Source: Firmicutes bacterium TM09-10
GTDB lineage: Bacteria > Bacillota > Clostridia > Christensenellales > CAG-917
Length of the DNA stretch: 25,765 bases
Assembly (NCBI GenBank): GCA_963586735.1
Contig: CAVABL010000002.1
Span: 1-25,765, forward strand
Reading direction: 5' to 3'
Positions 1 to 25,765 of the stretch are shown here, one piece after another; the stretch's first letter is position 1; every line of letters begins with the position of its first letter. Below the pieces are notes generated by a model. The model was not told the DNA's origin and searched no databases. It saw nothing but the letters and a program-made list of their open reading frames with translations. The position numbers were made by a program, and so were the translations under genes.

Positions 1-200
1 AAAAAACAATGATTGTGACGAAAAAACAATGATTGTGACGAAAAAACAATGATTGCGACGAAAAAGCGATGATTGCGACTAAAAAGCGATGATTGCGACT
101 AAAAAGCGATGATTGTGACGGAAAATCGATGTCAAAGACGAAAAACCGATGATTGTGACGAAATAGCGCATTGTGTGGCGAAATGGCGGCGTGTGTGACG
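1..200. repeat. 20-bp non-coding tandem repeat array (consensus AAAAA[A/G]C[A/G]ATGATTG[T/C]GACG), ~8 good copies decaying to ~200-240; truncated by window start
   Basis: Units at 1, 21, 41, 61, 81, 101 and 141 are near-identical; 121, 161 and 181 are degenerate but in phase. The period of 20 is not a multiple of 3 and there are no spacers. Confidence 0.95.
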
Positions 201-280
201 AAACGGATGTCGATTTTGGCGAAAAAGCGTGTATTGCGGCGGAAAACGTCGAAAATTGCGTGGCGGCGTAAGCGGTAAGA

Positions 281-1336: not shown

Positions 1337-1342
1337 AAAATG

Positions 1343-1371
1343 AATATAACACGATTGCCTCTCAAAGTCAA
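1343..1371 (-). promoter_or_regulatory. sigma70/sigmaA promoter for the DUF1624 gene, probably producing a leaderless mRNA
   Basis: The minus strand reads TTGACT (1371-1366), 17 bp ending in TGT, TATATT (1348-1343), CATTTT, ATG (1336). There is an extended -10 TGn and no SD. Confidence 0.7.
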
Positions 1372-1663
1372 ACCGTCGTTGCCGAGCAAAAATAAAAGAG
1401 AAAAAGCAAGCGTTCAGAATGTCGAAAAAAGCATATATACGGCGAAAATACGCAAAAAAAAGAGACGGGCGAAAAACGTTGCGGCGAAAACTTTTTTCGA
1501 GGAATCTAACCGTGGCAAAAACGGGGAAACGGCAAGAAAGGGAGTGTTAGAATGCCGAAAAAGCGAGAATAAGAGAAAAATTTCGCGCAAAACCGAGAAA
1601 AGAGAAAAAAACGAGAGTTTTGAGATTTTTTTGCGACGAGGGGCGCAAAAAAAACGACGTTTG

Positions 1664-1709
1664 CGCAACTTGTTGTGTCCAAAAGAGCGCGTCACCACAA
1701 CGTGTTGTT
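1664..1709. promoter_or_regulatory. Pair of imperfect 14-bp palindromes, candidate tandem operator
   Basis: CGCAACTTGTTGTG (1664-1677) and CACAACGTGTTGTT (1696-1709), 32 bp start-to-start, ending 25 bp upstream of the -35. Confidence 0.35.
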
Positions 1710-1734
1710 GCAATCGGCGCGCAAAGGTTGGGTA

Positions 1735-1763
1735 TTGACAAGGAACCGAAAAATTCGTATAAT
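1735..1763 (+). promoter_or_regulatory. Perfect-consensus sigma70/sigmaA promoter for the giant lipoprotein gene
   Basis: TTGACA (1735-1740), 17-bp spacer, TATAAT (1758-1763). Confidence 0.9.
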
Positions 1764-1782
1764 TGACTTGTATAATAATCTT

Positions 1783-1812
1783 ACGTATGCGCTACACGCG
1801 TGGGGCATGCGT
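1783..1812 (+). other. 5'-UTR stem-loop just upstream of the SD
   Basis: ACGUAUGC (1783-1790) pairs with GCAUGCGU (1805-1812) with one G-U; inner CUAC/GUGG closes an ACGC loop. Confidence 0.5.
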
Positions 1813-1815
1813 TTC

Positions 1816-1820
1816 GGAGG
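1816..1820 (+). promoter_or_regulatory. Shine-Dalgarno GGAGG
   Basis: GGAGG lies 5 nt before ATG 1826; there is an alternative in-frame ATG at 1832. Confidence 0.85.
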
Positions 1821-1825
1821 AGATT

Positions 1826-1900
1826 ATGAGAATGAGAAAGTTATCGCTCGTATTGTTGCTCGTGCTGGTAAGCGTTATGCTGTTCGGCATGGTCGCATGC
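1826..1900 (+). other. Lipoprotein (SPase II) signal peptide with lipobox; lipidated Cys25 at 1898-1900
   Basis: MRMRK (basic n-region), LSLVLLLVLVSVMLFG (h-region), MVA-C, followed by the disordered tether NPTTDGNKTNPVIPTPTPSPDDDDT. Confidence 0.9.
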
Positions 1901-4900
1901 AATCCGACAACGGACGGGAACAAGACGAATCCCGTCATCCCGACACCGACGCCGTCACCCGATGACGACGATACCGGCGAATACATAGGCTCGCAGCAAG
2001 CGTGGAATATATTCAAAGCGGCTGCGCTTGCGGAAGCCGGCGGTGAAAAGGACAAACGCTATATCAACGTCGACACGGCGTTTGTCATGGGATTTGCCAA
2101 AGACGCGTACGATTCGCTCATCGTTGCGCGTTTTGCAAGCAAGATAGACACGCAAGACGACGACGGAAGTCAGATTCTCATTGAATTCCGCAAACTTACG
2201 AACGCGGAAATCGCGGGAAGAAACACCGACTACGACTCCGTTTGCGAGATGGCGAAAAACGGTGAAGGCACTCTGCTTTTCGGCGCGTACTACTATGAAG
2301 GCAAACTCGTTGCCGATATGCGCGGAATCAAGAAGGGCGACGGCGTTCACGTGGTCTATACGGACACTATCGACATGACGAAATTCGTGTCGAAATTTTC
2401 CGACGCTCTTGACGAACTCAATCTCACATCGGTGCTTTACGACACACTCATGGGCTACGACATCGGCGGACTTGTCAACAGTCTCATCAAGATGGACATT
2501 GCCAAACTGACGGTCGAACAACTGCTCGTCAACATAATTTTCGGCGCAAGCAAGAGCACCCTCGTCGACTACGGCAACGGACGTCAAGTGCTTCGTATGC
2601 CGTGCGATCTCGGTCTTATCGTCAGTCTCATCCCGATCGTTCAGGGACTCATCCCCGAAAACATCATAGGGCTTGTCAAAGACGTGCTCGGGCTCGACCT
2701 CGGCAAACTCGGCGCATTGGCGGGCATGGCGCTCTATCTCGAAGCGGATATCGAACGAGGCTCGCTCAAGGGCGTCACGTTTGACATAGACGCAAATCTC
2801 AATTCTTATGGAATCGAAGGCTTGCAGGAAAAATACGGCACTTTCCAATCCGAATTCGGAATCACTCTCGGTCACGCAAAAACGACGTTTGCAGGCTTCC
2901 CCGACCTCGATGTCGTCGAAACTCTTAAAAATCGCGAAGGCGAAAACGGCAAAAACGTTTACGAAACGGTTGCCGAAGCTCAAAATAAATACTCCTTCCT
3001 TACGCTTGGCGGAGCAATAACTTTCTCTCTCGATTTCAACGAAAAAACGGTGTCGATTGACAATATCATCGGCTCTTTCGGCACTCTTTTGACAAATCTC
3101 CTCAATCAAAATCTCGACGCGAAGATGCTCGACGCGCTCAAACCGTTGTTTGCAAAAGAAATCAGTTTTGCCGACGGCACGGTGCAACTGACGATAAATC
3201 TTCAAGCGCATATCGACACTAAAAATTCAAAGAACACCAAATTCGCCGTTGAAATAATCGGTAACGGCGGTAAGAAACGCGTCACGGCGTACTACACGGG
3301 CGAGCGCAACGGCGTGTATATCGACGCAAGCGGTTTGCTCGGCTCAAACGGCACGAAGTTCAAGATTGACGACATCAACGTCAACGAATTGCTCTCGAGC
3401 CTCATCGACAAGGCGTTTGATGCAATCAAGGGCGCAATCGGCAATCTGCAAGGCGGAGCAACGACGCAAAACGTGCAACAAGCACTTGTCGACAGCGGCG
3501 AAATCGTCATCCAACACGGCGCGTATCAAGCGGCGGACGAAGAGGGCAGCGTCGACGTGTTGTCGCTTGTCAGCATGATTCTCGAGCATATTAACATCAA
3601 TAAGGACGAAAATATCTTCAACATCAAAGGCATCGAAGTGCAGTTGACGAGAGATTTGCTCGACACTATTTTCGACATGGTCTTCACGGGCGCAAACGCC
3701 GGCGCGGATATTCCGATTTCGGACGCGGCGCTCGTTTATACGAACTACGGCGCACAACAGGAAAAGACCCTCAATCTGACTGCCGACCTCGGCGTTTCGG
3801 GCGCAGAACCGCTCGTGAGCGTTGGACTCGGCGTTGAATTGTTGTTCGGAAAACTCGGCAACGAAAACGCGTTGCAAACCATTTTGAACAACCTCGACAG
3901 AGAACTCGAATCCAACCCGAAAGCGTATTTGCCCATCCTCAAAAACGGAAAATTCAACACCGATTTGTTGCACCTCAATCTGTCGACGGGACTCGTCATC
4001 GACGTGAATACTCTCGAGGGCGAACTTGCAAAACTCAACGTGAATTTGCCAAATCAGGACATCGGCTCGCTGTTCAAGGGCGTGCTCGTCAACGTCTTGC
4101 TCGAACTGGGCAACATTGACGGCGGACTTCAACTCGACGTCAACGCCGACCTCGACTTGACGCACGGCTTTAAGTCGGAAGATATTTTCGGCACGCTGCT
4201 TAAATCGTCGGCGAAAATCGTCGTTTCCAAACGCTCAAACGGCGAAGAAGTGCTGTCCGTCTACATGCAGGACGGCTATGCGTACATCAACGTTGACTTG
4301 CTTTGCGTAAACGTGAAGAAAGTCAAACTCGATTTGAGCGAGATTGCCGGATTGCTCGCAAGCGGCTCGGACGACGCGTCGGCACAGGCTCTCGTCGCGG
4401 GCGATACCACCGAAGAGGGCGGAACGGATATATCTCAAATCCTCGGTCTCGTGTCGGGACTTATCGACGGATTCAGCATCGGCAACCATGCAATCGAAAT
4501 CATGCTTGCGTCGAATTTGTTTGAAACCGTGCTCGGTATGCTCAATATCGAGGGCGTCGATATCCAATTTGCAAGCACGGAATTTGACGGCGGTATTCGC
4601 CTTGCCCTCAACGACGGAATCAATCTGTCGCAATTGCAACTCGGCGTTTTCGTGGCAATCGGCAACAACGTCAACTTCAACGTGTCTCTCAACGGCTTGT
4701 CGGCAGGCATGAACGACGTCGCAACTCCGTATTTCACGGACGACGGGCGCAACGCGAACGAATATACAGAGATTCTCGACTATCCGTTTGTGGCAATAGA
4801 TATGGCGCTCGGTCTCAGCGTCAACGCCGATCAAGGTAAGAGAGAACTCGTTTTCGGCGAAGGAACGCACTGGCTGAACGACGAGGGCGAATATATCGCT

Positions 4901-7900
4901 ATCGAAACTACGCCCGCTCCCGCCGACTACACGGGAAAATTCTACTATAAAGACATCAACGGCAACTTCAAGGTCGAAAACAAGACTACCGCAACGCTTG
5001 CGTTTGACGAGCAAATGGAAATCAACTACGAGTTGCGTATCGCAGGTCAACTCGACCTTTCGCCTATCATCGATTATGTGCTCGGCGCGGGACAGATTGA
5101 CACCGCAAACAACGTCAGCGAACTGCTCATCGAACTCACCGGCAGAAAATACGCCGAAGAGCGCAAAGTTTTGCTCGGCTTGTACTACACGGGGCGCGCA
5201 CTCTATATCGACGCGACCAATTTCGGACTCAATAAAGTCAAAACCGACATCGATTTGTACGAAGTCATATTGGCGTTGATTGCAAAAGATACCACGATTC
5301 AAATCAACGGCGTGTCTATTGCCGACGCTATGACAGCGGCAGAGGAAAGCGAGGACGCACAGGCTGCAAAGAGGGCTCTTGCGCTCGATATAATCGCGGT
5401 TTTGTCCTCGGATAACGTAAAAATCAAGATTGCGAAGGGCTTGACGGAAGTTTTGTATAACGTCATCGGCATCGACGCAAACGAAATCACCGCGTGGGCG
5501 CAAATCGCCTGGGCAAGCGTGCAGGATAAGTTTGACAATAAACCCGTCCGCATTGCAATCGACGTCAACAACGAGGCCGGCGCATCTGTCGGCGGTGCGG
5601 AAATCTACGTCGGCACGGTCCTCAGACGCCTCGACGAAAGCACCGGGACGTACGGCGACTATCTCGAAGCAATCAATTTCGCAATCGGCGGCGACGCAAT
5701 CGAACCGCTCAGAATCGTGCGCGAAAACCTCGACATCGCACTCACGGAGTACTTGCAAGACTCCAATAGAGGCACGTTCGATACAGTCGATCTCGTCAAC
5801 GAAAACGGCGACCTCACCATTCCGAGCATATACGCAGAACTCAAAGGTACGTTCAGCATCGGCGCGGAAGCGGGCAATCAGTCCTGGACGGTGGGCGAAT
5901 GGATCGCTCAATTCCTCGGCGACGACAATCCCGACATCAAATCGTTTGTAAATCAACTTCTCGTCACGTACAAAGTGCCCGTCGAAGCGGGAGCGGATAT
6001 AGGATTCCGCATTGCGCTCAACGCAAAACTCAATCCCGACGTTCCGATCGACCTCACGCAAAACGTGGCGTTCGTCAAATACGACAACTCGAGACTTGCC
6101 GAACTTGCAGACTATGCAGAAGTGTATAAACTCGTGAAGTCGAAATATACGCTCCTCACGGCAAGCGAGCGCGAAATCGGCGGAAAAGAGGCGTATACGG
6201 GCGACGTTTTCCTCAAACAGTATCTTGCGGACGGAATCGCTCTGAGTGAAGTCACCGACCTCGGCTACACGGGCGAGGGCTACGTCAAACTCAACGACAA
6301 CTACGTCAAAGTGAACGTAACCGAAGAAAACGCGGGCGCGTTCGGCACGATTTATACCGCGGCAAGTTTGCTCGATATAGGATATATCGCGGCGCACAGC
6401 GACATCGCAATCGAAATCTATAACAAAGCAATCGGCGATATCGACAGTATGTCGAATGCCGAAAAGAACGAACATATAATTCTCGCTCTGCGCTTGCAAA
6501 GCACGGGCGAAAACGTCGAGGGCAAGACGGTGAGCTCGGTCTATCTCGATCTCGGCACGGACTTCCATGTCGCACTTGCGAATCTCGATCTTGCGGCACT
6601 CATCGGCGGTCTTACGGACAAGAGCGGCGATTCAGGTGAAACGGCGTCTGCGGCGGCGGACGGCGGCATCGATATAATGAGTTTGCTCGGCTCGGTGCTC
6701 GGCGGCATAATCGGATATCTCGGCGTTGACTCGCAAGGCGTGAAAATCAACTTTGCCGAAGGTTTGGTCGTCACCCTCGTTCAAATGCTCGCAGGCAAGG
6801 AAATCAACCCCGAAAAGTTTGTCAAACTCAATTCGGACAGAAGTTATCTTGCGTTCCGCTGGAAGTATAATCTCGCGCTCGCGCTTCAGATCGATCCTGC
6901 AAAACTCAGCCTCGAACTGAGCGAAATAAATCTTGCGCTCGGAAAAGATACGGGTGTGTTGCCCGACGATTTCGACGATTCGATTTATACGACTATCGAC
7001 AACCTCGATACGCTTTCGGTCAATATCGAACTCGGTCTCGACCTCCAAATCAAGGGACAAGAAGAACAAGTGCGCCTTGAAAAATATATCGATTTGTTCC
7101 TCGCAGACCTCGGAATCACCCTCGGTCTCGATATGTTTGACGACATCGATTATCAAATCGGAATCAGCATCGGCGCAAACCTCGCTCTCAACGAACCGAA
7201 CGACAGTAATATCATTCTTGAAATAAAGAATAAGGTTACGGGTACAACTATACTTGCCGTCTACGTGGAAGGCGGAAATATCTATTTCGACTTCGGCATC
7301 CTCGGCAAAGAACCCTTCTATCTCGAACAAACGAACCTCTGCGAAACCGTTTGCGACGCTATCGTCAAGGCACTTGGCGACATAAGCAGCAGTGCAAGCG
7401 GCGACGCCGCAGTGGCGGCGGACGACTCGACGTCGAATCGCGCCGACGAACAAATGCAGGTCATATTTGACATCGCCGACGGCAAAATCGGCGTTCTCGT
7501 CATGCAAAACGTGCTCGTCGGACTTATTGCCGCGCTCACTTCAAACGGCAGCGGCAACCTCGACATCGCAGACATCGTCGAAAAACTCGACCTCGACATC
7601 ACCGTTGACGTCGATTTGCAACTCAAACCCGCAATCACGCTCGCCGTCAACCTCGACAGCAAACTTCTCGCGCTCGGCGTGAGCGTCGACAATATCGACC
7701 TTGCAACAGGCAAATACAGCGACGCGTATAAATCGGTTGCCGCAAAGGCAAAAGCGGGCATCCACGACGTCAACTACGTTGAAATCGCCGACGGCGAAGT
7801 CTACACCGACACGAGATACGCAAAGGACGAAAACGGCAACTTCGTTGAAGCGGAGGACGGAACGTATAAGAAGATTGCGTACTATGAAGAACTCAAAAAC

Positions 7901-16900: not shown

Positions 16901-19900
16901 TTCCAAAGCCTTATCGGTTTTGACTTCGACGTCAAGGTTTACTTGCAGACGGCAAACCTCGTCAAGATGCTCGGCGGTGACACAAGCGTCGGCATTTTGC
17001 AGGTGCTCGAAGGCGCAAAGATTTACGTTGACTTGACGTATGAAACGAACTTCCACGGCGATAAGAAACCGCACGCTTATTTGTGGGTCGAAATCAAGAA
17101 CGGCAAACTCTATCTCAACATCGACGTGAGCGAAATCGGCGACATCGTCGGTTGGGGCGACTTCTTCTCGTACGGCGTTATCGAAGGGCTCGATTTGTCG
17201 AGCATCCTCGGCGGTGACGCATCGACGGCGTTTGCGCAAGCAAGCGTTGCGGCGGACGACGACGAAGTCAACACCGGTATTCTCCCCGCAAACATTTGGA
17301 ACATCATCGACGTCGTCGTTGGCAGATTGCTCTTCGCAAACGACTTCATCAACATCGGTTTGAACGAAACTCTCATCGCCGACCTCATCGGTATGCTTGC
17401 GGACAGCGATAACGAGATTTTGAGCGGCATAGGACAATTCCTGCCCAAACTCCGCACGACCGATACGAAGGACACCAGCGGCGTCACTATAAACTTCTAC
17501 GGCAACTCGCCCAGCATCGACATCAACCTCGGCTTCAAAGTCGGCACGCTCTTCTATGACACGGTTGCAGACTTCAACGCATACTACGGCGCAAGCGGCA
17601 AGTATACGCAGTCCGAAGATTGGACCGGCACGACGTTTGTCAAGGAAAGCGACGGAACTTACACCGAGGGCAAAGTCACCAACGAAGACGGAACGATTGA
17701 CAAAGACAACACTTATGTGTTGATGTCAACCGACGACTACGCTCTCGTTGCGTACGCATATCCCGCATGGGCAGGCGACACCTACGATTATGACGTCACG
17801 AACGACAAGTTCACAAAGAACGAGAACGGAAAAGGCGCATATCTCAAACAGGGCGACTTTGCAGTGGCGGTATCGCTCGGCAAAATCTACGCAAAAGTCA
17901 ACAAGGACTTCTCCGTTGACAAGGACAGCGTGTTTGCCGATAAGACGGCGGACGGCAAAGTCAACTACGAATACGTCGAATCCGAAAACGGCGAATTTGT
18001 CAAGGACGGCGAAACGTATCGCCTTGCAACGACTGCGGACACAGGCACTCGCTATGCGAGAAACGCAACATACGACAAATACGTCGCATTGCAAAACGCA
18101 ACCGCGCATCTTGAAATGTCAATCGAGATTTCGTTGTACGGCAGCGGTAATGCAGGCAACGCGAACGTCATCGATTTGAGTGAAATCCTCGATCTCGTGA
18201 TGGGACTCATCAATCCCGACAGCGCAATCAGCGGATCGCAACTCAAACTCAACATCGTCAACGAATTCGGCAACGATTCGGGCGCATATCTAATGCTCGA
18301 CCTCGTTGCGAACATCGACGTCGAAAACTTCAAAGTCGAACTCGGTTTGCAACTCAACAAGCACGCAAAAGGCTCGGTAAAGAAGACGCTCATCGGCATA
18401 TATCTCGTCGAAGACACGATTTATGTCGATTTGAGCGGTATTCTCGGCAATACGGCAAAGATTGCGGTCACCGACCTCAACCTCACGGGCTTGCTTGAAA
18501 GCACGCTCGGCAAGTTCCTTGCAACAGAGGAAGAGAACACCGCATCGGGCGCAAGCGTTGCAAGCAACGTCGATATTCAGACGATTGAAAACAACAAAGA
18601 TCATCTCAAAAACTACGCGTACTTCATGATCAACGTCACGCCGCAAAAGTTGTTGCTCCAACTCAATGCGGATCTTGTCAACGCAATCTATAAGAAGATA
18701 ATGCAGATTCGCGGTATGGAACAAAAGAATCTCATCCCCGACGTCGGCGACTTGCTCTTCAGAATGGACTCATCGACAACGGGCGCAAAGAAGTACGTCA
18801 AGTTTGCAAGCGAAGAGGAAAAGAACGAATATACGGGAACAACCTACAAAAAGGACGGCGTGAGATACGTTGAAGTGACGGACGGAACGAAGGGCGACTA
18901 CTATCAGAACGGCAACAAGACAACGTTCAGCCTCAACCTCAGATTCAGCGACGGCTTGTACTTCTGCCTCGATATTCCGTCAATGGATATATCCAAGAAC
19001 ATCGAGGGCAACTCGGTTGTGGATACGTTCAATCTCAATTGCACCGACAAGTACGTCGAAATCGCGACGGTCGCAACGTTCGAGGGACAAAAATATACGA
19101 AGAACTCCGACGGCACATACTCGGCGTTCAACGGCACGACCTCAACGGACACGACGTACTACAAGAGAGTGCTTGCTCCGTCGGGCTATTACGAGATTCT
19201 CTCGCTCGACCTCGAAGGCCTCATCGGCGGTACGACGACGTTTGACATCTCGAGCCTCAATCTGCCCACAATCGGACTTGCGGCTTCGCTCGAAGTCACT
19301 ATGACGTCAAAGAATCTCAAACCGGGCGATAACGGTTATGACGATTCGCTTGCGGGTTGGTTGATTGACTTGCTCGGCAACTTGCTCGGTGGACAATCGC
19401 TGTTCGGCAAGTTCGAAGCACTCACCGTCACAAACGGCAAACTTTACGACGGCACGACGGAATACACCGGCAAAGTGTACACAAAGAGCGGTGACACGTA
19501 CGAAGTGTACACGAGCAAGGATTATTCATCCGGCACATTCTATAAGTACACGATGGCGGACATCAACATCACGTTCGCAAGCGAGGCGGTCAACCTCACC
19601 ATCGACATCGCCGCAAACGTCAACCTTGCGCCTATCCTTGCCTACGGCATCGGCGGCATCCTGTTCAGCGATATCGCGGTCGACGTCAAGGCGGGCGATC
19701 CGATCAACTCGACGGTTCTCAGTCTCTACTACCTCGGCTCTTCAAGACTTATGAAACAGTCCGAGTCCGACGGCAAGTGGGAACTCGGCACGGCAACGCA
19801 GGCGGGTTATTCGAGCAACGCAATCTTCTCGGACGCTCTGTATATCGACGCGAGCGGTCTCGGCCTCGGCAAGATTAAGTTCCAAGGCATTGCGGGCTTG

Positions 19901-22900
19901 CTCGGCGCATCGCCGAATTACGCACAATCGGCAGACGCAACCGTAAGTTCGGACGCAACTACGTCGGACGCGGAAACGAGCGCAGAGGCAAAAGCGGCGG
20001 CGGCAAGCGCGCTGTATCTGGAAGTGGACATCGAAAACGGACGTCTCAGCGTGTCGTTTGACAGCGCCTTCATCTCAACGCTCATCGGCATGCTCAACAT
20101 CGATTTGGGCAGCATAGAACTTCCGCCAATCAAGTCGGTCAAACTTGACGTCAACCTCGACGAAAGCGGTTTCGACTCCGTCAACCTCAACGCTCAACTC
20201 GACAGCGTCGGCACGGGCGCGAATATCGCAGTCAAGAACGTCGACCTCGGTCTCGGCGAAAGCAAGGTTGACACCGAAAAACTCATCAACTCCGTCAAAA
20301 CGGGTTATGCGGGCTTGACCTACTCGAAGACGTCGGGCTTGATGTCGCTTGTGCAAAACGTCATCGACAACTTGAAACCGGGTCTCAATATCAACATCCA
20401 AAACAAGGTGTGGCAAGCAATCCTTAAGAGCGACACATACGGCTCGTACGACCATTCGAGCATCACTTTGTCGGGCAGAAAGGAATTCATCGCAACCAAC
20501 CTTGTCGACGGCAACGATACCGACAGAAGATACAACATCAGACTCGGACTTAAGAGCACACGCTCGGATGCAAAACTCAACGTCATCGTTGGCGGCAACA
20601 ACATCTTCCTCACGGATATCAGCCTTGAAGGTACGCTCATCGGTTGGGTTAAGAATCTCAGCAGCGTGCTTAACTGCATCGATTTGGGCAGCATGCTCGG
20701 CAGTTCACCGATGCTTGCGCTCGTCAGCGGAACGGACGGCGACGATGCGACGTACGAATATCCGACCGCAAAGACTGCGGCTGACATCATGACGACGGCG
20801 GCAGGTTGGCAATCGGACGGATCGTATTCATATCCCATCAAGACGGACAACCTCATCAAGAGCGTTGACGTCAATTTGTTCAACAGTTATGAATATTGGC
20901 CGTACTTTGACAACGCAACGGCGGTTTCAAGCGGCGCAGGCAAGATCTCTGCAAAGATCGAACTCAATAAAGACGCATACAACGAATTGATCATTGCGGT
21001 TTCGTGCATCGTCATGGGCTTGCTCAAAGACGGCATCGACGGCGATGACGGCGAACCGTATTTTGCAGACGTAACAAGAATCGGCAACTCAACGAACAAG
21101 TCGCTCAGCGACGTTATCATTCAAAACGCAGGCAAGAATAACACGGCAATCGGCAATACCGACGAAATCACGAAATTCTTCAACGGACTTGACACTCTCG
21201 TGAAAGCAAACGCTTCCACGCAAGACAAAGTCAACTATGTCGAACCGTTCATGCGTTCGATTCCGCTTACGCTCGTGAAGTGGATAATCAAGTGCGTTGC
21301 AGTGCCTGCAATCAACGTCAGCATTGCAAGCTGGTCAACAATTAAGAATTTGGCGGCATCATCGCTTGAAGACCTTGAAAAACTCATCGGCGGTATACTC
21401 CCGCTTCCGTTTGCAAGCGGCGTGATTAACCCGTCAATCAACATCTACATCGACCTCAATCCGAAGGCGAGCGAGTACGACTCCAAGACGACTTACACCG
21501 TCAAACCAGGAATTCAAGCCATTGAAATTATGGTCAACGGCAGAAAGAACGGCACGGGAACGTCAATGCTCTACAACAAGGCGCAATCGACGGACAAAGG
21601 CAGTATGAAGTTTATGATCAACGGCGGCGGCGCAGTGAGCGGAACTGTTGAAAACAGCACTACCACAACGACGTCAATCGGCGAGGCATGGGACTTCTTT
21701 ATGCTCCGCATAACGCCGTACAGCATCGGCAATACCGATTATACGACGGGATTGTTGCAATTTGACGATTCGGAAAGCGCAAGCAACATCGGCGTCGAAC
21801 CTCCGAAGGAAATCGTCATCGAAGATCCTGCAACGAGAAAGGGCTACGCTCTCTCGGGCGGCGCAAGAAAGGACTTTGAACTCAGAGACAGTTTCTTCTT
21901 CGATTCAACGCTCTTCCCGCAAAAAGCGCAGGTCAACTTCCCGATTTGGAGCGAAAGCGATCAAATGACCTCCTACAACGCAGGCAGTCAATATCAGGAC
22001 GCAACCGGTACGTTTATCGTTTGGGACGCGGCTTCCGTCGATTTGACGGCGGCAACTTCCGAAACGGTGGATCCGAACGGCAGACGGCTTGCGGGCTATG
22101 TTTACGGCTACGCGCTCAACACGGTGCTCTACGCAATCCCGGTTTACGTCACAAACGACAAAGAGTTGCAATCCGTCAAAGGCTTGTATAAGGACGCAGA
22201 CGGCAGTTTCAACGCAAAATCGCTCTCGCTCGACATCGACAGCACGAAGAACACGTATATGTCGGCACTGCCCGATCTCGTGAAGATTTCGTTTACGTCC
22301 GGATCGTATACGTTCGGCACGTATCTCACCGATTCGCTCGGCAATATGGCGTACGCGGTAATCGATCCGTTCGGCAGCGCGCCGTATCAGACGATTGACG
22401 GCAGCAAGTATCAAATCCTCACTCAACCCACCACTGAGGAAAAGAATAACGGAGCGGAGGACAATCTCAACTCCGACGGCAACAAATATCTGTTGATGCC
22501 GGCATACGTGGCGGGACTCGTCAAGGATAGCGACGGCAAATATAAGACGGTCAGCGTGGGAACGAAGACTTACTATGTGCTCAGTCGCGCCAACTTGCCG
22601 ACGGGCAAGCAATTCCCGGCGGGTACTATCGCGTGGGATACGGACGACTTCACGTACGATTGGCAAGGCTCGACAGATTGGAAGAGCGGCGATTCAACCA
22701 ACGTCGTCAAAGTCGGATTCACGTATCAATGGGGACTCGGCAAGGAAGTCAAGGACACGCTTGAACTCAATGCCAAGAACTACAAGATTTCAAGGCTCAC
22801 CACGATGGCGACGTCCGCTGCGGACACCTCGCCCGTGACGCTAAAGAGCGCGCGCGACAAGGACGGCAACTACACGACGTATCTCGAACTCGACTCGATT

Positions 22901-25765
22901 GCGCTTGACAAGAATACGTCGAAACTTGCGGATTATCTCAACAGTTTCACGGTCGTCAGCGGTAAGTTTGCAAACGAAAGCTCGATGAACAACTTCGACG
23001 TCGAGTGGGATTTGAGCGAACTCAACAAGGCGATTAACCAAATCACCTCAAACGGAACGGTCAACTTCTACAAAGGAATCGACGTGACGGTCAAGGCAAA
23101 AGTCGGCGGTCAAAAGTTCAGCATTTCGACTACGGTCACGAAGAAGACTATCGGCGACGACTCATACGGCTTTGTCGGCAAGAATGAAACGTTCAGCGGA
23201 TACCTCGCACAAGAAGTCAACGTGAGAATCGTCGTCAATCCGTACGTTTACGATTCGATGGTCAACGACGTGACGTTCGATCAATACAAGTATTCCGCAA
23301 TCACGGCGGACTCGCTCGGCTCTACGTTCAAACTCTACGTCAAGGACGCAAGCGGCAATAAGGTTCAAAAGACTTTGAACGTCGGTTCGGGACTCGAAGT
23401 TTCCGCGCCTTACGTCAAGATCGGCAACGGATATTTCGACGCATACAACAACTCCGTGCACAAACTGACGGCGGATGAAATCACCTACAACGGTTATAGC
23501 AACTCGACGCGCTATCCGCTCTATGCGAAATTCGTCATCGGCACGGAATTCAGCGGTAAACAGACGGTCTACGTGCCAATCAAGATAAACGAGCGCAAAG
23601 CGACGACGTTTGACGAAACCGTCGAGGCGGAAGACGTGTTCAACCCGACTTGGTTCAATACGGACGCACGCAAGAGTTATAGCGTGTCAATCGGCACGGG
23701 GCAATACACGATGTACCCCGATTGGAGCACGGTGAAGTATTACACCAACGCCGCATGCACAAAACTCAAAGCGGCGCAGAATATCTTTGACGGCGGCACG
23801 ATTTACGCACAGGTCGAGGCAAAGGTGCTTGACGAAAACGGCAACGCGCTTGCTCTCGTCAACACAGGAAACGTCGACGAGAACGGCGACAAGATCTACG
23901 AGGCGCAAAAGATAACTATCCGTCTCAACGTCGAAAAACAGACGATCACGTCGGTCAACTTCTTCTGTGACGAGGAGATCGGCGACGTTGCGGCATACGT
24001 AAGATCGCTTGAAATTCTCACCGAAGAGGATCGAAACGTCAAACTCGCCGCACTCAATGAAAAACTCAAAGATCAAAGCAAGTACACCGGCACGGTTTAC
24101 GAGCAAACGCATATCGTCACGCAAACAGACGAGGAAGGCAATATTGTCAAGACGACTGCGTACGGCATCGATCCTATCAACTTTGCAACCAACCCGACCG
24201 ACTACTTCAAGACGAGCGACTGGGGCGACGCAATCGGCGGAACATCCGTTTTGGTGAACTTGTCAAACGGCGAGAAGTATATTGCGTACATTGCGTCGTT
24301 CACAAGCGCATTGCCGACGTTGAGCGTAAACGGACTTGCGTACAGAGCGTATGCGACGATAGGCAATCAACGCGTCGCAATCAATATGAACATCCCGTCG
24401 TACAACTTCATAAACGGAGAATTCGAGGACGGAACGCTCACCGCAAAGGGCGGCAAGATAGCAGGCGAGGGCGACAAAGTGCTCGAACTCACGTATAACG
24501 TGTTCAACGCTTGGAACTTGCCTTCAAAGGCATCCGTAACGACGGCGCAAGGCAAGAGCGAACTCACGGTTGACGTCAAGTGGCTTGACAATTCCGCACC
24601 CGAAAAGGACGAAATCGTCACCGACGAGAACGGCGAAAAATACGTCGAACGCAAGTATGCGTTCTTTGACGAACTCTCGTTGCGCTATCCGCAAGAGGAC
24701 GGCTTCACGGCAAGAATCTATCTCGAAGGATTCAACGAAAAGGTCGATATCTCGTTCGCTGGAAAGGGCACGACTTACGATGTGTTTGACGAGTTTAAGT
24801 TTGCAACCACGGCAACCGTCACGACGGGCGGAGTCGCATACAACGACGTGCCGCTCCACTGGGTTGACGCGAGCATGCCCACACGCGATGAAGTCGCAAG
24901 CGGTTCGTTCACGCGCAAGGCGTATGTAATCGGCGAATTCGCAAACGGCGAAATCGTCGTTCAGGACTTCACGTTCAAGATCAACACCGACTTCACGCTC
25001 GACGGCATCAACGGATCGTACAAGGGCGGATTCAACGTCGAATTGAGCGCGGATAACTTCTATGCGGGCTTGCTCAAAGCAACGACGCTCAACGTGAACG
25101 ACAAACGAATCCCCGTCACGCTCGGCTGGAGCGACAACTACACCGCAACGGACGGCTACGACGGACTTATGACGCTTACGATAAAGAGCGAATATCTTGA
25201 AAGCGACGTCACCGCAACCGTCAAAGTCGCAAAGGCGGGCATCATCGCTCTCGCGGACGGCTCGGTTTACGATCTCGATCCCGTCGGAATCAAGAATACG
25301 CTCTTTGCAAACGGCGCGGACGTCAAGGTCAAAGTCAACGGCACGAACAAGGAACAAATCGTCAAGGCGTATTATGAATTTGACGACGCACAGTTCTATG
25401 CAACCGTCTCCGACTACTTCGGCAAGAAGTACACGGTCAAGGTGACGTATAGATACAACGCAGGCAAGGACTACAACGAGGAATACGGCGAAATCACGGT
25501 TTACGTTCTGAACAGAAAGATCGAATACGTCACAAACATTTCGGAACGCACGATCGTCATCGACACGTTCATCCACAAGGATTCGTCGCACCTTGCAAAC
25601 GTCGTGAACGTCACAACGATTGACGGCAATACGTTTGACGCATACTTCGATTGGTCCGACATCGACAGATTCATCAAGAACGCAAGAAGCAATAACTCCT
25701 ATATGGCAACGGCAATCTACGGCGTTGCAAGAGCGGACGGCGACTACGTGCTTGCAGACATCACC
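1826..25765 (+). CDS. Giant surface lipoprotein, at least 7,980 aa, 3'-truncated by the window; tandem LolA/LppX-like modules plus a C-terminal Ig-like array
   Basis: Hand translation of the frame with codon starts = 2 mod 3 gave no stop from MRMRKLSLV... to ...DYVLADIT. The ORF track lists no + ORF in this frame after 1738, as expected if it never closes. Codon bias is strong and uniform, and promoter, SD and signal peptide precede or start the frame. Confidence 0.95.
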   Translation, partial: MRMRKLSLVLLLVLVSVMLFGMVACNPTTDGNKTNPVIPTPTPSPDDDDTGEYIGSQQAWNIFKAAALAEAGGEKDKRYINVDTAFVMGFAKDAYDSLIVARFASKIDTQDDDGSQILIEFRKLTNAEIAGRNTDYDSVCEMAKNGEGTLLFGAYYYEGKLVADMRGIKKGDGVHVVYTDTIDMTKFVSKFSDALDELNLTSVLYDTLMGYDIGGLVNSLIKMDIAKLTVEQLLVNIIFGASKSTLVDYGNGRQVLRMPCDLGLIVSLIPIVQGLIPENIIGLVKDVLGLDLGKLGALAGMALYLEADIERGSLKGVTFDIDANLNSYGIEGLQEKYGTFQSEFGITLGHAKTTFAGFPDLDVVETLKNREGENGKNVYETVAEAQNKYSFLTLGGAITFSLDFNEKTVSIDNIIGSFGTLLTNLLNQNLDAKMLDALKPLFAKEISFADGTVQLTINLQAHIDTKNSKNTKFAVEIIGNGGKKRVTAYYTGERNGVYIDASGLLGSNGTKFKIDDINVNELLSSLIDKAFDAIKGAIGNLQGGATTQNVQQALVDSGEIVIQHGAYQAADEEGSVDVLSLVSMILEHININKDENIFNIKGIEVQLTRDLLDTIFDMVFTGANAGADIPISDAALVYTNYGAQQEKTLNLTADLGVSGAEPLVSVGLGVELLFGKLGNENALQTILNNLDRELESNPKAYLPILKNGKFNTDLLHLNLSTGLVIDVNTLEGELAKLNVNLPNQDIGSLFKGVLVNVLLELGNIDGGLQLDVNADLDLTHGFKSEDIFGTLLKSSAKIVVSKRSNGEEVLSVYMQDGYAYINVDLLCVNVKKVKLDLSEIAGLLASGSDDASAQALVAGDTTEEGGTDISQILGLVSGLIDGFSIGNHAIEIMLASNLFETVLGMLNIEGVDIQFASTEFDGGIRLALNDGINLSQLQLGVFVAIGNNVNFNVSLNGLSAGMNDVATPYFTDDGRNANEYTEILDYPFVAIDMALGLSVNADQGKRELVFGEGTHWLNDEGEYIAIETTPAPADYTGKFYYKDINGNFKVENKTTATLAFDEQMEINYELRIAGQLDLSPIIDYVLGAGQIDTANNVSELLIELTGRKYAEERKVLLGLYYTGRALYIDATNFGLNKVKTDIDLYEVILALIAKDTTIQINGVSIADAMTAAEESEDAQAAKRALALDIIAVLSSDNVKIKIAKGLTEVLYNVIGIDANEITAWAQIAWASVQDKFDNKPVRIAIDVNNEAGASVGGAEIYVGTVLRRLDESTGTYGDYLEAINFAIGGDAIEPLRIVRENLDIALTEYLQDSNRGTFDTVDLVNENGDLTIPSIYAELKGTFSIGAEAGNQSWTVGEWIAQFLGDDNPDIKSFVNQLLVTYKVPVEAGADIGFRIALNAKLNPDVPIDLTQNVAFVKYDNSRLAELADYAEVYKLVKSKYTLLTASEREIGGKEAYTGDVFLKQYLADGIALSEVTDLGYTGEGYVKLNDNYVKVNVTEENAGAFGTIYTAASLLDIGYIAAHSDIAIEIYNKAIGDIDSMSNAEKNEHIILALRLQSTGENVEGKTVSSVYLDLGTDFHVALANLDLAALIGGLTDKSGDSGETASAAADGGIDIMSLLGSVLGGIIGYLGVDSQGVKINFAEGLVVTLVQMLAGKEINPEKFVKLNSDRSYLAFRWKYNLALALQIDPAKLSLELSEINLALGKDTGVLPDDFDDSIYTTIDNLDTLSVNIELGLDLQIKGQEEQVRLEKYIDLFLADLGITLGLDMFDDIDYQIGISIGANLALNEPNDSNIILEIKNKVTGTTILAVYVEGGNIYFDFGILGKEPFYLEQTNLCETVCDAIVKALGDISSSASGDAAVAADDSTSNRADEQMQVIFDIADGKIGVLVMQNVLVGLIAALTSNGSGNLDIADIVEKLDLDITVDVDLQLKPAITLAVNLDSKLLALGVSVDNIDLATGKYSDAYKSVAAKAKAGIHDVNYVEIADGEVYTDTRYAKDENGNFVEAEDGTYKKIAYYEELKNAHIIALDLSLILDYYSSATYTLVTDEKALEAFSPQDRYSHNAHDGRFVQDPEGTYIRDGFAFDELLNMILSNESLKDVLSTMLPQIRINVDDDEFHAELQKDKFSLGDLLERVGLNLVLFDQIDDGMKIDVQARLNLQELGFDDISKIDIDNLNLDVDTILKGLEACISVDFDYENRLDKDVKINVYLINGVLYLDLEGVGGPKVQVDVMDLLADLGIEIGGNSDAKVAADDTTEESGLNVAELLNMIVSKLVLQARPWIETDTTKGNRLEYLGVFVKANFINDLLSMVFGTKMNSKNVIVDPDQSGIYLYPQTDKFKQYGMDNALSLSLEVALANKKDPLNKDKNGNFRQYTYDIDLALDATIDLESVDTNATLLDMDKRVEFISLDEYIENIVALIGGFRGENYKKESNPADSTIYYTFKEDANGEYLLKTGMYRKPNFNIDANGAYVFDETSGEYRLVNDGEVLPEGTKRYSKEDLAGVTMYSRAYAIVRTSPEDGKQYAYHVTYVADENGDYVYDAEKDVYVNRNDEDAPAGATYKKVETAMTVTEKDSDGKEVTRNALASDVKLYERCDVESYQDQNVSLSVSGLIYFNSSSAEVANAGGLLPNALRDMIINLQTMSAFNAGIGLRVSANIDLAALDLQGLASGGTFAEFIANSDMSKVELAIEFVDVNADGYFAKYDTAKGSKDGNEKVLGGLYLSGGTLYIDFTGVVGTAENYSKIENFISFAKKVADKIGSLNNKDEQNGASTASDEVQSTAERDALVMVAYSDARFQIQLTRALIAFVLASFMPDLGSLEDVFDVFNVSLGVDLGEPVYKKISEVADETERAKFDNEYKEDRYKYYEEEEYFDATLDNYYVAGGSYYAASTTDVYVLNDSGGTVGEKDRYDKLDLTNGKKYGIYGGNSHVQITAQVNGKYVHSNSDYYAKIDESATPVSLRSYRMYRNGTSTVTDTYIEGQTYVIFNGSQCQIKSLQTRKFGYEKDTDGEYYRTVNLYTAINEYYLGLDIAIGCINMGLKLGGITLDFGAGDGLLPTYIRDGKAHSVLVEANDGTNKEIEYTDETKDSYTFDDVPTNMFYDTIITVGVSVEFEFGMTEGTLDFGTILSAIVGDLTGVVVEMPTTTKGYTSAHFRLDVSLMVDIYDLTKSELKIELINVTETGYESVWLGAYYVNNTIYVNLEEAFNIQKFAIGGLNIAEMLKDYIIDFDDEEMFVAGSSSKAVSSGDAFVASNAFQSDAQTSDAQSSTVSLSDKELALSVLIDKDLLTLKLGNKLFDTIIEYIPEDLLGFDIKDLFYQEVNGGVQVELNTSDSLNLSVGVALGLDGDRYNKDSSYTGTEAEKTALIAKVKEETSAYYVFRQDDNGYYTKESNGTYIRAIAPDMSVLAAERYSKFRISYSTESNKLYLRQVVDNGKSDGSEVYKEYTDAAGSTIIGEDLTASETSAVDIYKLTVGAVANKSFVKDGAKYDTTLSLSLAIKNLNVAFTNSRTYVLSGDELAEYTNMDDVDRFTLSETIDISTQFKTGDGNDIDLSAVLQSFFPSLTDDQLLVIKAQSDTNGDVERSLQLVVDADIQIAALLNFMRTELVKYVGDSDQFDGDMDLFSVLDLLKQVIEQLKNNTDQLTSLIADIASYVNLSVRLQTKGGNDTEYHDMLGVYMIGGEFSLLTDEERNDTNSANYVDPSERYDHYFETKGGSYYLGTDGKYQYITSSEYAGTRYSYDSSYCYKNTKGNYKRTNGGLFVDLSYFNLPSLRIDANEIRSLVGSLLASSSASDAMVADDTTSDDEDGGISFPLVKDDKILGYIRTFAYGLQVTSRYVRVLAKADYLNSILSLIMGENAIQFDEDGFVNKPNVTLYTDNTRYTYENVGTKMFDFIEKVHALDKTASDYNAQKKALVNDFERVLNKSKYLFDITEYYGENYTEGVYYKTSDGAFVQKNDMSTTELAEYNAKVKANVDGKNEYKYYSIKKVESYLKVTNGGTTNYVKYSEATQAQINNCAKIDEVTDGTNTYHLQEIYGLRVPELYEYNETTKEYSVADAKYFIVEPLKAKNEFVSINLYLWNHKVSLAINAPIVGVTEFEYVTGEDAMNNYDISNIAAGARYVNKNEDIYTSVDKESDGTSNWKFDYYTNSKFDFNKYFTEDGTNYPRYYEYKSQYIEINENTLYVKKGANTFEKAANSKAEFPNFLVEMDTEGTEYYVKTDTAYVLMQRVFIYRRYTYNTQKKVLLDANDTTTPSNEYWVKVQQTSSVTQPDFSKPEYDDYAYDEYVDSDDLYFLSLALRGSLFVQAGKIYFDYATYEEVYESIHKTALTTDAVKDALYKKYHGDYVKLASTDDADTLKENNNLYVLVNSTLGDKYGKVDEALGDVLGGIVGALTGKFQITEDMTFNVYFSLRLNLSFKLYILPSFGIDVRDLDVAIDVWGEQNDLMTNGNYVTSVDRDNNDYDGKLLDGTKPHILGIYYDNDKDTGKAGLYVDAEALLGKDAKLFVDMSEYSLEDVISGLVANIGTSSADAAVASDSVTEKNPDKQSADTTSLFVNIFTNALALNVTSGFAKVLVKELLPDNASIADLLPNLKVYLKQNLNPYDITIGAILFNEKGDIPVFNLGLNIQGMNGTDESSSIAFGKKETIIAMQQGSMDIFYYANFYRDNSNNDYSNYYGKNFNEKDYVKLFRDKDGNDYYFKGETYVELAEAEKETYTGKIYKQVNNAYVELAETEKETYDGKLFRKADGYTLETSTDGLYVATAEEGGGYAIYKSKDGKIAGPEDRYMKAAPVMSQLLATRQTAYNDIVYTDVDGIYMPVHEKLNDIAGNDNVTGSNYRYLVGTSQFAAYTGTLYIVDENSNYVRTNKDELQGYTGSGALQYALASDYTSASESEIARKVTFNKQVYYPIDTNNDGCTDMAEADAFKAAYPSATVFKQVTDFTNYTKALSLNLGDLLGGAEFNVASMLAELQCIELGLNLNIAMTLNDVINWTYQLTRFIDSKEIAEYVYFIATSLQNSKEFQSLIGFDFDVKVYLQTANLVKMLGGDTSVGILQVLEGAKIYVDLTYETNFHGDKKPHAYLWVEIKNGKLYLNIDVSEIGDIVGWGDFFSYGVIEGLDLSSILGGDASTAFAQASVAADDDEVNTGILPANIWNIIDVVVGRLLFANDFINIGLNETLIADLIGMLADSDNEILSGIGQFLPKLRTTDTKDTSGVTINFYGNSPSIDINLGFKVGTLFYDTVADFNAYYGASGKYTQSEDWTGTTFVKESDGTYTEGKVTNEDGTIDKDNTYVLMSTDDYALVAYAYPAWAGDTYDYDVTNDKFTKNENGKGAYLKQGDFAVAVSLGKIYAKVNKDFSVDKDSVFADKTADGKVNYEYVESENGEFVKDGETYRLATTADTGTRYARNATYDKYVALQNATAHLEMSIEISLYGSGNAGNANVIDLSEILDLVMGLINPDSAISGSQLKLNIVNEFGNDSGAYLMLDLVANIDVENFKVELGLQLNKHAKGSVKKTLIGIYLVEDTIYVDLSGILGNTAKIAVTDLNLTGLLESTLGKFLATEEENTASGASVASNVDIQTIENNKDHLKNYAYFMINVTPQKLLLQLNADLVNAIYKKIMQIRGMEQKNLIPDVGDLLFRMDSSTTGAKKYVKFASEEEKNEYTGTTYKKDGVRYVEVTDGTKGDYYQNGNKTTFSLNLRFSDGLYFCLDIPSMDISKNIEGNSVVDTFNLNCTDKYVEIATVATFEGQKYTKNSDGTYSAFNGTTSTDTTYYKRVLAPSGYYEILSLDLEGLIGGTTTFDISSLNLPTIGLAASLEVTMTSKNLKPGDNGYDDSLAGWLIDLLGNLLGGQSLFGKFEALTVTNGKLYDGTTEYTGKVYTKSGDTYEVYTSKDYSSGTFYKYTMADINITFASEAVNLTIDIAANVNLAPILAYGIGGILFSDIAVDVKAGDPINSTVLSLYYLGSSRLMKQSESDGKWELGTATQAGYSSNAIFSDALYIDASGLGLGKIKFQGIAGLLGASPNYAQSADATVSSDATTSDAETSAEAKAAAASALYLEVDIENGRLSVSFDSAFISTLIGMLNIDLGSIELPPIKSVKLDVNLDESGFDSVNLNAQLDSVGTGANIAVKNVDLGLGESKVDTEKLINSVKTGYAGLTYSKTSGLMSLVQNVIDNLKPGLNINIQNKVWQAILKSDTYGSYDHSSITLSGRKEFIATNLVDGNDTDRRYNIRLGLKSTRSDAKLNVIVGGNNIFLTDISLEGTLIGWVKNLSSVLNCIDLGSMLGSSPMLALVSGTDGDDATYEYPTAKTAADIMTTAAGWQSDGSYSYPIKTDNLIKSVDVNLFNSYEYWPYFDNATAVSSGAGKISAKIELNKDAYNELIIAVSCIVMGLLKDGIDGDDGEPYFADVTRIGNSTNKSLSDVIIQNAGKNNTAIGNTDEITKFFNGLDTLVKANASTQDKVNYVEPFMRSIPLTLVKWIIKCVAVPAINVSIASWSTIKNLAASSLEDLEKLIGGILPLPFASGVINPSINIYIDLNPKASEYDSKTTYTVKPGIQAIEIMVNGRKNGTGTSMLYNKAQSTDKGSMKFMINGGGAVSGTVENSTTTTTSIGEAWDFFMLRITPYSIGNTDYTTGLLQFDDSESASNIGVEPPKEIVIEDPATRKGYALSGGARKDFELRDSFFFDSTLFPQKAQVNFPIWSESDQMTSYNAGSQYQDATGTFIVWDAASVDLTAATSETVDPNGRRLAGYVYGYALNTVLYAIPVYVTNDKELQSVKGLYKDADGSFNAKSLSLDIDSTKNTYMSALPDLVKISFTSGSYTFGTYLTDSLGNMAYAVIDPFGSAPYQTIDGSKYQILTQPTTEEKNNGAEDNLNSDGNKYLLMPAYVAGLVKDSDGKYKTVSVGTKTYYVLSRANLPTGKQFPAGTIAWDTDDFTYDWQGSTDWKSGDSTNVVKVGFTYQWGLGKEVKDTLELNAKNYKISRLTTMATSAADTSPVTLKSARDKDGNYTTYLELDSIALDKNTSKLADYLNSFTVVSGKFANESSMNNFDVEWDLSELNKAINQITSNGTVNFYKGIDVTVKAKVGGQKFSISTTVTKKTIGDDSYGFVGKNETFSGYLAQEVNVRIVVNPYVYDSMVNDVTFDQYKYSAITADSLGSTFKLYVKDASGNKVQKTLNVGSGLEVSAPYVKIGNGYFDAYNNSVHKLTADEITYNGYSNSTRYPLYAKFVIGTEFSGKQTVYVPIKINERKATTFDETVEAEDVFNPTWFNTDARKSYSVSIGTGQYTMYPDWSTVKYYTNAACTKLKAAQNIFDGGTIYAQVEAKVLDENGNALALVNTGNVDENGDKIYEAQKITIRLNVEKQTITSVNFFCDEEIGDVAAYVRSLEILTEEDRNVKLAALNEKLKDQSKYTGTVYEQTHIVTQTDEEGNIVKTTAYGIDPINFATNPTDYFKTSDWGDAIGGTSVLVNLSNGEKYIAYIASFTSALPTLSVNGLAYRAYATIGNQRVAINMNIPSYNFINGEFEDGTLTAKGGKIAGEGDKVLELTYNVFNAWNLPSKASVTTAQGKSELTVDVKWLDNSAPEKDEIVTDENGEKYVERKYAFFDELSLRYPQEDGFTARIYLEGFNEKVDISFAGKGTTYDVFDEFKFATTATVTTGGVAYNDVPLHWVDASMPTRDEVASGSFTRKAYVIGEFANGEIVVQDFTFKINTDFTLDGINGSYKGGFNVELSADNFYAGLLKATTLNVNDKRIPVTLGWSDNYTATDGYDGLMTLTIKSEYLESDVTATVKVAKAGIIALADGSVYDLDPVGIKNTLFANGADVKVKVNGTNKEQIVKAYYEFDDAQFYATVSDYFGKKYTVKVTYRYNAGKDYNEEYGEITVYVLNRKIEYVTNISERTIVIDTFIHKDSSHLANVVNVTTIDGNTFDAYFDWSDIDRFIKNARSNNSYMATAIYGVARADGDYVLADIT
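15948..16063 (+). repeat. Recent 69-bp (23-aa) in-frame tandem duplication
   Basis: CATACGTTGAACTTGCCGAA is identical at 15948 and 16017; protein YVELAEAEKETYTGK / YVELAETEKETYDGK. Confidence 0.9.
16568..16603 (+). other. EF-hand-like Ca2+-binding loop within the giant protein
   Basis: DTNNDGCTDMAE matches D1-x-N3-x-D5-G6-x-x-D9-x-x-E12 and is followed by helical ADAFKAAY. Confidence 0.5.
21790..25765 (+). repeat. Tandem divergent bacterial Ig-like (Big_4/PF07532-like) domains, ~11 in window, continuing beyond it
   Basis: Recurring pattern h-x-h-D-P/x...LP-x-x-h-x-V...V-x-W...G...h-x-h-x-V, e.g. FPQKAQVNF..IVWD, LPDLVKISF..IAWD, LPSKASVTT..VKW. Conserved Trp codons at 22022, 22634, 23006, 23723, 24581, 24860, 25127 and 25652. 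Confidence 0.65.

Follow-up and report, generated by a model that had tools for sequence, protein, structure and literature searches.

The window, by which is meant the whole 25,765-nucleotide stretch of DNA analysed, holds most of a gene for a giant lipoprotein of ∼1 MDa. The gene is real and represents a conserved, uncatalogued family. Much of the encoded protein is a tandem array of modules with a predicted fold resembling that of LolA/LppX-type carriers, and our preferred reading, which we rate slightly below an even chance, is that lipid auxotrophs use the array as a chain of lipid-binding pockets to bring external lipids to their membrane.

Translation of positions 1826-25765 on the forward strand gave 7,980 residues (∼875 kDa) with zero stops and a frame still open at the window edge, which bears out both the stop-free frame of 23,940 nt described in an earlier note on this DNA and its size estimate of roughly 0.85-0.9 MDa or more. 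The chance of a 7,980-codon stop-free run, calculated from base composition, is ∼1e-164, and GC content by codon position in the frame is 0.51/0.35/0.68. The window is the entire contig C2 of source genome G000, and truncation of the frame by the assembly likely explains why it was absent from the list of open reading frames. The stop codon that the earlier note sought by extending the contig was found elsewhere in the same genome. In blastp against orthologue G029, the window reaches residue 7975, and contig C136 carries a 927-residue open frame that matches residues 7981-8891 of G029 at 62% and then ends in a stop. A gap of roughly five codons separates C2 from C136, so the whole protein comprises ∼8,910 residues. 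The gene and its 5′ signals are as follows.

1735-1763, forward strand: sigma-70/sigma-A consensus promoter, TTGACA-17-TATAAT (12 of 12 consensus positions)
1816-1821, forward strand: Shine-Dalgarno sequence, GGAGGA (read from the sequence)
1826-1900, forward strand: lipoprotein signal peptide with lipobox MVA-C and Cys25 (translation; lipobox in family genes)
1826-25765, forward strand: 5′ part of the giant lipoprotein gene, 7,980 codons out of ∼8,910 (translation; C-terminal 927 codons on contig C136)

The fragmentation of the G000 assembly (1.35 Mb, 218 contigs, N50 8 kb, 83% complete) could speak for an artefact of assembly or prediction, but the probability of such an origin is negligible. 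Single blastp alignments covered residues 1-7980 against the full-length orthologues G016 (64%) and G029 (62%), and since these orthologues are complete and the alignments run along the whole length, the gene is not chimeric. Orthologues were found in 32 of 36 genomes of the same genus in a search with a 733-residue piece, and all 20 of the 20 same-genus genomes fetched contained collinear, closed frames of 8,506-9,521 residues ending in stop codons. Neither an in-frame stop nor a chimera, either of which would have contradicted the earlier note, was therefore encountered, and the promoter and lipobox are conserved across the family genes. In the one-contig genome G035, the gene lies in shorter frames of 1,085 and 2,645 residues (C1, 673281-675462), which are probably the product of sequencing frameshifts. 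Positions 1-170 of the window contain approximately seven imperfect head-to-tail 20-base units at the contig start; this repeat is probably non-coding, as the unit is not a multiple of three, and is the likely cause of the contig break.

Inspection of the 5′ region agreed with the earlier description of a perfect promoter and Shine-Dalgarno sequence preceding a lipobox signal peptide. Of 32 family genes, 31 are preceded by a promoter matching at least 10 of 12 consensus positions, a score reached by 27 of 640 shuffles, and this conserved consensus promoter points to vegetative expression. The N terminus consists of a basic MRMRK n-region and a hydrophobic h-region followed by MVA-C25, and each of the 32 family genes examined has a lipobox close to its start. 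As the lipobox is conserved and Lgt (PF01790) occurs in all five genomes tested, G000 included, Cys25 is presumably lipidated, and this residue is predicted to anchor the protein on the outer side of the cell membrane. A C-terminal LPXTG motif with a hydrophobic segment and basic tail was found in neither C136 nor 21 relatives, all of which end in a polar beta-type segment, in keeping with the earlier view that the LPXTG signature is missing.

NRPS and PKS are the commonest huge proteins of bacteria (PMC11573180, in part). Nine overlapping 1,000-residue slices of the window gave no Pfam or NCBIfam match over cut-off and 18 shorter slices gave no Pfam match over cut-off, and thus NRPS/PKS, RTX/T1SS and CDI signature domains were absent at these thresholds, as the earlier note had read by eye; one RTX_C row (E 0.02, 15 bits) fell below its cut-off of 30. 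Size, secretion and an Ig-like tail are shared with giant Gram-positive Big_4/Ig surface proteins and with the giant proteins of Clostridia. The latter have been described as RCC1, Listeria-Bacteroides or YG-repeat proteins (10.1101/2023.11.21.568195, in part), whereas the protein reported here is predicted to carry a lipid at its N terminus, and a new module makes up two thirds of its length. “Christensenell-” and “lipoprotein” are absent from the main text of that paper, although its supplement may list such proteins, and no description of the present family was found in the literature searched.

A module HMM, for which reversed sequences peaked at 10.5-11.6 bits, resolved residues ∼50-6150 into 14 diverged modules of ∼265 residues. 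Module 1 was related to module 2 by hhalign (probability 96.2, E 2e-9). Neither a blastp self-comparison nor a tblastn search of the protein against its own genome revealed a repeat or a paralogue, and the repeats surface with profiles only. The regions of the protein are as follows.

1967-2986, forward strand: module 1, with a LolA/LppX-like predicted fold (hhalign to module 2; model; structural matches)
2945-4720, forward strand: modules 2 and 3 (module HMM; model; structural matches)
4745-20275, forward strand: modules 4-14, separated and interrupted by Tyr-rich insertions (module HMM)
Residues ∼974-1258, 1318-1699, 1701-1964, 2126-2399, 2599-2837 and 3095-3351: modules 4-9 (module HMM)
Residues ∼3504-3882, 4356-4642, 4972-5247, 5415-5648 and 5911-6150: modules 10-14 (module HMM)
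20276-25765, forward strand: C-terminal tail in which Ig-like V-x-W-D units recur (motif reading; continues on C136)

The earlier inference of highly diverged modules from an uncharacterised family stands for these 14 modules, which have no Pfam or NCBIfam match, but not for the tail, in which a known domain was recognized. The tail occupies the last ∼2,750 residues, with V-x-W-D motifs at residues 6731, 6935, 7059, 7298, 7766 and 7941. Big_4 (PF07532) scored 26 bits against a cut-off of 22.1 on C136, and exceeded the cut-off only in this part of the tail and in orthologue G029.

Each module contains alternating hydrophobic strands, amphipathic helices, a hairpin of the form YY-x-G-x-LY-x-D and, in a flexible linker, the motif A-x-x-A-x-D. 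In a stack of 141 modules, 80 of 251 columns were at least 80% hydrophobic, 72% of the residues in those columns were Leu, Ile or Val, and hydrophobic positions alternated along the strands. These aliphatic, inward-facing columns could line a hydrophobic cavity in each module. Low-confidence linkers with A-x-x-A-x-D/E occur at residues ∼860, 1168, 1861, 2251, 2774, 3252, 4536 and 5139; the motif resembles a signal-peptidase cleavage pattern, and the linker might serve for processing or act as a lid or plug. Conservation is higher in the modules than in the insertions, and in the tail it does not exceed that of the modules; Tyr makes up 10% of residues between modules compared with 4% inside them. 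Tyr/Trp-rich repeats of ∼40 residues lie in the loops and differ between species. They occur in the window at residues 1017, 1438, 4699, 4729, 4833 and 5861, have no Pfam match, and were seen in the genus of the window only (one seed searched). In G003 (L032) and G009 (L025), they have grown to ∼240 residues after the module 3 helix; duplication of a module in these two genomes was considered and rejected in favour of this repeat expansion.

AlphaFold2 models of module 1 (pLDDT 69.1, pTM 0.59) and of modules 2 and 3 together (pLDDT 71.6, pTM 0.59) contained ∼11 strands plus helices per module, and the predicted fold is a curved sheet of ∼11 antiparallel strands with helices. A VIA-align search against 48,161 chains placed seven proteins at the top for module 1, with most of each target covered: SAOUHSC_02783 (Z 7.2, rmsd 4.9, 174/231 aligned), Thermus 2yzy (Z 6.9), a Bacteroides LolA-type chain (Z 6.8), LppX (Z 6.8, rmsd 4.7, 147/183 aligned), LprG (Z 6.8, rmsd 5.7, 159/205 aligned), EPD-BCP1 (Z 6.7) and LprF (Z 6.6). 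A barrel appeared at Z 6.5. Modules 2 and 3, when aligned separately, matched LolA-type chains with Z values of 6-7.7, and outer-membrane barrels scored equally well. All of these Z values are below 8, a range in which, according to the tool, a match may reflect a merely common arrangement, and rmsd values were 5-9 Å (4.7 being the lowest). Foldseek with the model of modules 2 and 3 gave its highest probabilities to LprF (0.89), LolB (0.84) and LprG (0.82), with LppX also listed, as local matches at E 0.004-0.01 with low TM-scores and rmsd of 12-14. Module 1 gave nothing at E 0.001 in Foldseek, its best probabilities being for Csa1B, lipovitellin and ApoB.

Sequence comparison provided no corresponding match. 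The A4 and A9 module profiles found nothing in a PDB sequence search, A1 found designed armadillo repeats only (E 0.007 or worse), and no Pfam family recurred consistently among 118 modules. Leads of low recognition in the ESM Atlas were unnamed Bacillota clusters (0.90-0.91), DUF4925 (0.89), DUF6612 (0.86) and DUF6583 (0.84). Kinship with DUF6612 found no support, as neither HMMER nor hhalign with a 7-sequence DUF6612 profile was significant (probability 0.15-1.6). Members of the LolA superfamily share little sequence identity (10.1101/2025.01.13.632879, in part), and the missing sequence match therefore weakens the case for membership rather than that for a working resemblance. The module is predicted from the models to work like a LolA/LppX-type domain, whereas membership of the superfamily stops short of sequence support.

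Carriers of the LolA/LppX/LprG type are defined by 10-11 antiparallel strands in an unclosed sheet, by a helical lid with a hydrophobic cavity beneath it, and by binding and transfer of lipid. Like the giant protein they are lipoproteins, and its modules are predicted to have a similar curved antiparallel sheet of ∼11 strands with helices. Known members are single domains of ∼200 residues, mostly exporting, in diderms or mycobacteria. The giant protein, by contrast, has 14 larger modules (2-23 in relatives) of ∼265 residues in one chain of a monoderm, with import proposed, and has no detectable sequence similarity to them. The staphylococcal Csa-type proteins (SAOUHSC_02783, Csa1B) are likewise Gram-positive lipoproteins, and SAOUHSC_02783 is the top structural row for module 1, but they are separate proteins of ∼230 residues with no sequence match to the modules.

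Great length, repeated amphipathic beta-sheets and a proposed role as a lipid conduit are also features of VPS13, ATG2 and the AsmA-like proteins TamB and YhdP. In these, an RBG unit of five strands plus a helix-loop (PMC7613979, in part) builds a continuous groove between two membranes, whereas the giant protein has a predicted unit of ∼11 strands and a predicted lipid anchor in a cell with one membrane. A continuous hydrophobic groove of this kind, through which bulk lipid would leave the membrane of a host or neighbouring cell, would account for the strict amphipathic alternation in the modules. It would also suit the hint of fixed packing in the equal pTM of the one- and two-module models and the several structural alignments that span both modules 2 and 3. 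We nevertheless consider such a groove very improbable, given that the repeat is not the RBG meander with its helix-loop (PMC7613979, in part), that most structural matches are confined to one module and that the later modules are separated by long insertions. VPS13, ATG2 and AsmA-like chains were absent from the 50 VIA-align matches listed for the modules, below which such chains may still rank.

The full-length homologue search proposed in the earlier note returned collinear orthologues within the genus and a family confined to one order in the draws examined. A first module profile matched 53 of 401 genomes of the order. The A9 profile, built from a stack of 118 modules and scored on the same 401 genomes, matched 88: f1 22/22, f11 15/21, f13 2/2, f16 1/6, f17 3/3, f23 5/5, f24 2/2 and f26 18/20, plus 20 f35 genomes. 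On these profile matches, the family covers eight families of one order. In a class-wide draw of 105 genomes scored, matches were confined to G000 and G072. Each genome has one giant locus. Close relatives have 12-14 module copies and distant ones up to 23 matches; ten distant loci encode lipobox-bearing proteins of 7,879 to >11,089 residues, and shorter forms occur in G123 (2,731 residues, 7 modules), G143 (3,175 residues, 7 modules) and G226 (1,661 residues, 2 modules). Among 8,000 candidates of 140-604 residues, two matched as stand-alone single-module proteins and are likely fragments. In an RpoB tree of 60 genomes chosen from the 401, genomes encoding the module (carriers) formed one clade of 39 rows (SH-aLRT 86, unstarred), which includes two non-carriers and leaves carrier G144 outside, suggesting that the family arose about once.

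Neighbouring genes vary between genomes, apart from the cases given here, and no transporter gene was conserved beside the giant gene across the loci examined. The divergent neighbour in the window is the following.

281-1336, reverse strand: HGSNAT_cat (acyltransferase-clan) membrane protein (Pfam PF07786, E 9e-24)

This gene is clustered upstream of the giant gene in 19 of 21 relatives and is not directly adjacent to it in distant families; it is kept in place and is at most a candidate part of the same system. In G048, the 8 kb preceding the giant gene include PlsY and two DegV genes, and an FGGY kinase lies directly upstream in G226. Another large secreted ORF directly follows the giant gene in 6 of 11 distant loci. 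Such second ORFs, of >1,194 to >4,734 residues, begin ∼30-750 bases after the giant gene in G048, G190, G059, G174 and G125 (L027:2-14203 and L142:1-11646, both reverse strand; L145:13660-19998; L129:12669-17999; L131:16418-19999), and secreted ORFs of 2,268 and 1,174 residues follow in G143 and G226. Three scanned pieces of the following ORFs had no Pfam match at E 0.001. Contigs C28, C51, C94 and C137 of G000 encode other large secreted proteins of 1,154-3,519 residues, several cut by contig ends, with Gly/Asn/Val-rich motifs that are presumably of the GLUG type.

The second ORF, together with the Big_4 tail, the Tyr/Trp-rich repeats that expand in loops, the range of module number (2 to 23) and length (1,661 to >11,000 residues) and the weak fold scores, would fit a structural fibre or adhesin stalk. 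The modules would then have packed cores and act as rigid spacers holding the Ig-like tail and Tyr-rich repeats outward, with the lipid-gene losses described below as unrelated traits of the clade. We regard a stalk as possible but doubtful. The modules are conserved above the insertions and no less than the tail, and lipid-carrier folds came first or tied first for three separately aligned modules. To our knowledge, the units of known stalks are Ig, G5/E or helical, and none of these resembles an open sheet that has one aliphatic face. The gene is also kept at ∼2% of a genome of 1.3-1.7 Mb.

The distribution of lipid genes bears on a role as a carrier chain. fabF exceeded the cut-off in 132 of the 401 order genomes and in 0 of the 88 carriers, two genomes (G312 and G397) giving sub-cut-off matches only. 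FabZ/FabA was found in 0 of 5 carriers, all of which contained PBPs. Another five carriers, overlapping the first five in part, had DegV, ACP, CdsA and PlsC-family proteins in 5 of 5 and PlsX in 4 of 5. Outside the clade, in f4, f8, f9 and f22, many genomes lack both fabF and the module. PlsY was found in 320 of the 401 genomes and was absent from 81. By hand cross-count, the module was present in 69 of the 81 PlsY-less genomes, leaving 12 with no module match, as against 19 of the 320 that have PlsY. In the PlsY-less family f23, which was outside profile building, the module was predicted beforehand and was found in 5 of 5 genomes. On the 60-genome RpoB tree, the PlsY state changes at least seven times, six of them inside the module clade. 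An independent-pairs test of module against PlsY gave p = 1, the lack of significance following from the near-single origin of the family, and the gene-loss link may reflect shared ancestry. The accompanying Fisher value (p 6e-47) is given no weight, since related genomes are not independent of one another.

FakA, a DAGK-family kinase and a CDP-alcohol transferase are present in G000, and GpsA was not found in this genome at its 83% completeness. The usual gene order around der and spoIVA leads plsY and gpsA to be expected there, and neither lies between der and the spoIVA-like gene of G000, which are on one contig. A second PlsC-family acyltransferase of ∼400 residues, which could replace PlsY, was found in carriers of four families (G000, G048, G061 and G341; L220:3353-4681, L222:2317-3564, L223:2607-3752 and L224:1546-2736, all reverse strand), three of the four having a zinc-ribbon-like segment. 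A further 480-residue frame in G000 (L219:2546-3985, forward strand; C64) has, by eye, a cytidylate-kinase-like N terminus fused to a PlsC domain. Loss of lipid pathways has been reported for the Christensenellales family UBA1242 (PMC12306168, in part) and for RF39, for which fatty acids were suggested as growth factors (PMC6784871, in part).

The LolA fold also serves other functions. GerS and SsdC are LolA-fold proteins of spore-forming monoderms with non-lipid roles (10.1101/2025.01.13.632879, in part); they belong to the superfamily that the giant modules are predicted to resemble in fold and, like these, come from Firmicutes, and GerS is a lipoprotein, but they are small, sporulation-specific and protein-binding, unlike tandem modules behind a vegetative promoter. 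With this precedent (10.1101/2025.01.13.632879, in part), the modules might form a scaffold with no membrane-lipid cargo, holding partner proteins (as in GerS-CwlD), acylated proteins, sterols, quinones, isoprenoids or bile acids, or serving in sporulation. The superfamily does take in the RseB/MucB, VioE and ependymin-like rows among the module 1 matches, and the spoIVA-like gene indicates sporulation genes in G000. The vegetative consensus of the conserved promoter tells against a scaffold, as do the losses of fabF and plsY, which it leaves unexplained, and we consider it improbable.

We return to the preferred reading of a lipid-carrier chain. As no fatty-acid synthesis gene was detected in carriers, the giant protein likely helps them to acquire preformed lipids from their surroundings. 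A precedent for binding and transfer of acyl lipids by such a domain is LprG, which binds triacylglyceride and carries it from one vesicle to another (PMC4709180, in part). The protein would be exported by Sec and then lipidated at Cys25, so that its 14 LolA/LppX-like modules could extend as hydrophobic pockets through and beyond the wall. The Ig-like tail, outermost, might reach or dock on a lipid source such as micelles, vesicles, debris or neighbouring cells. Ready-made acyl lipids would be relayed hand-to-hand inward toward the membrane, where the cargo could enter the retained route of FakA/FakB, diacylglycerol kinase, PlsC and CdsA. Our rating of this reading as just short of even takes into account the Z values below 8, the ties with barrels, the pLDDT of 69-72, the single origin, the possible second acyltransferase and the retention of PlsY in 19 carriers. 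The same rating allows for the non-lipid tasks that LolA folds perform in GerS and SsdC.

A bolder and more speculative proposal, which we hold only tentatively and think unlikely in full, is of a new envelope machine: a megadalton, lipid-anchored relay of 14-23 LolA/LppX-fold pockets that would import whole glycerolipids across the Gram-positive wall, and whose single origin would have let a clade of uncultured gut Christensenellales drop fatty-acid synthesis and then, repeatedly, PlsY. If true, bacteria with one membrane would possess a lipid bridge that runs inward, and the nutrient that the carrier lineages need in culture would be identified.

The question of how gut bacteria devoid of fatty-acid synthesis are supplied with membrane lipid has been raised for RF39 (PMC6784871, in part). 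The giant family is a testable candidate for that supply, and its single modules of ∼265 residues can be expressed and assayed. Even if the protein proves structural, its domain is uncatalogued, and its gene defines a clade and occupies ∼2% of a reduced genome. If it is a glycerolipid carrier, it would be a tandem form of the LolA/LppX fold with no precedent in the literature searched and a lipid-import conduit in monoderms, and it would offer a culturing hint for eight families of uncultured gut Clostridia.
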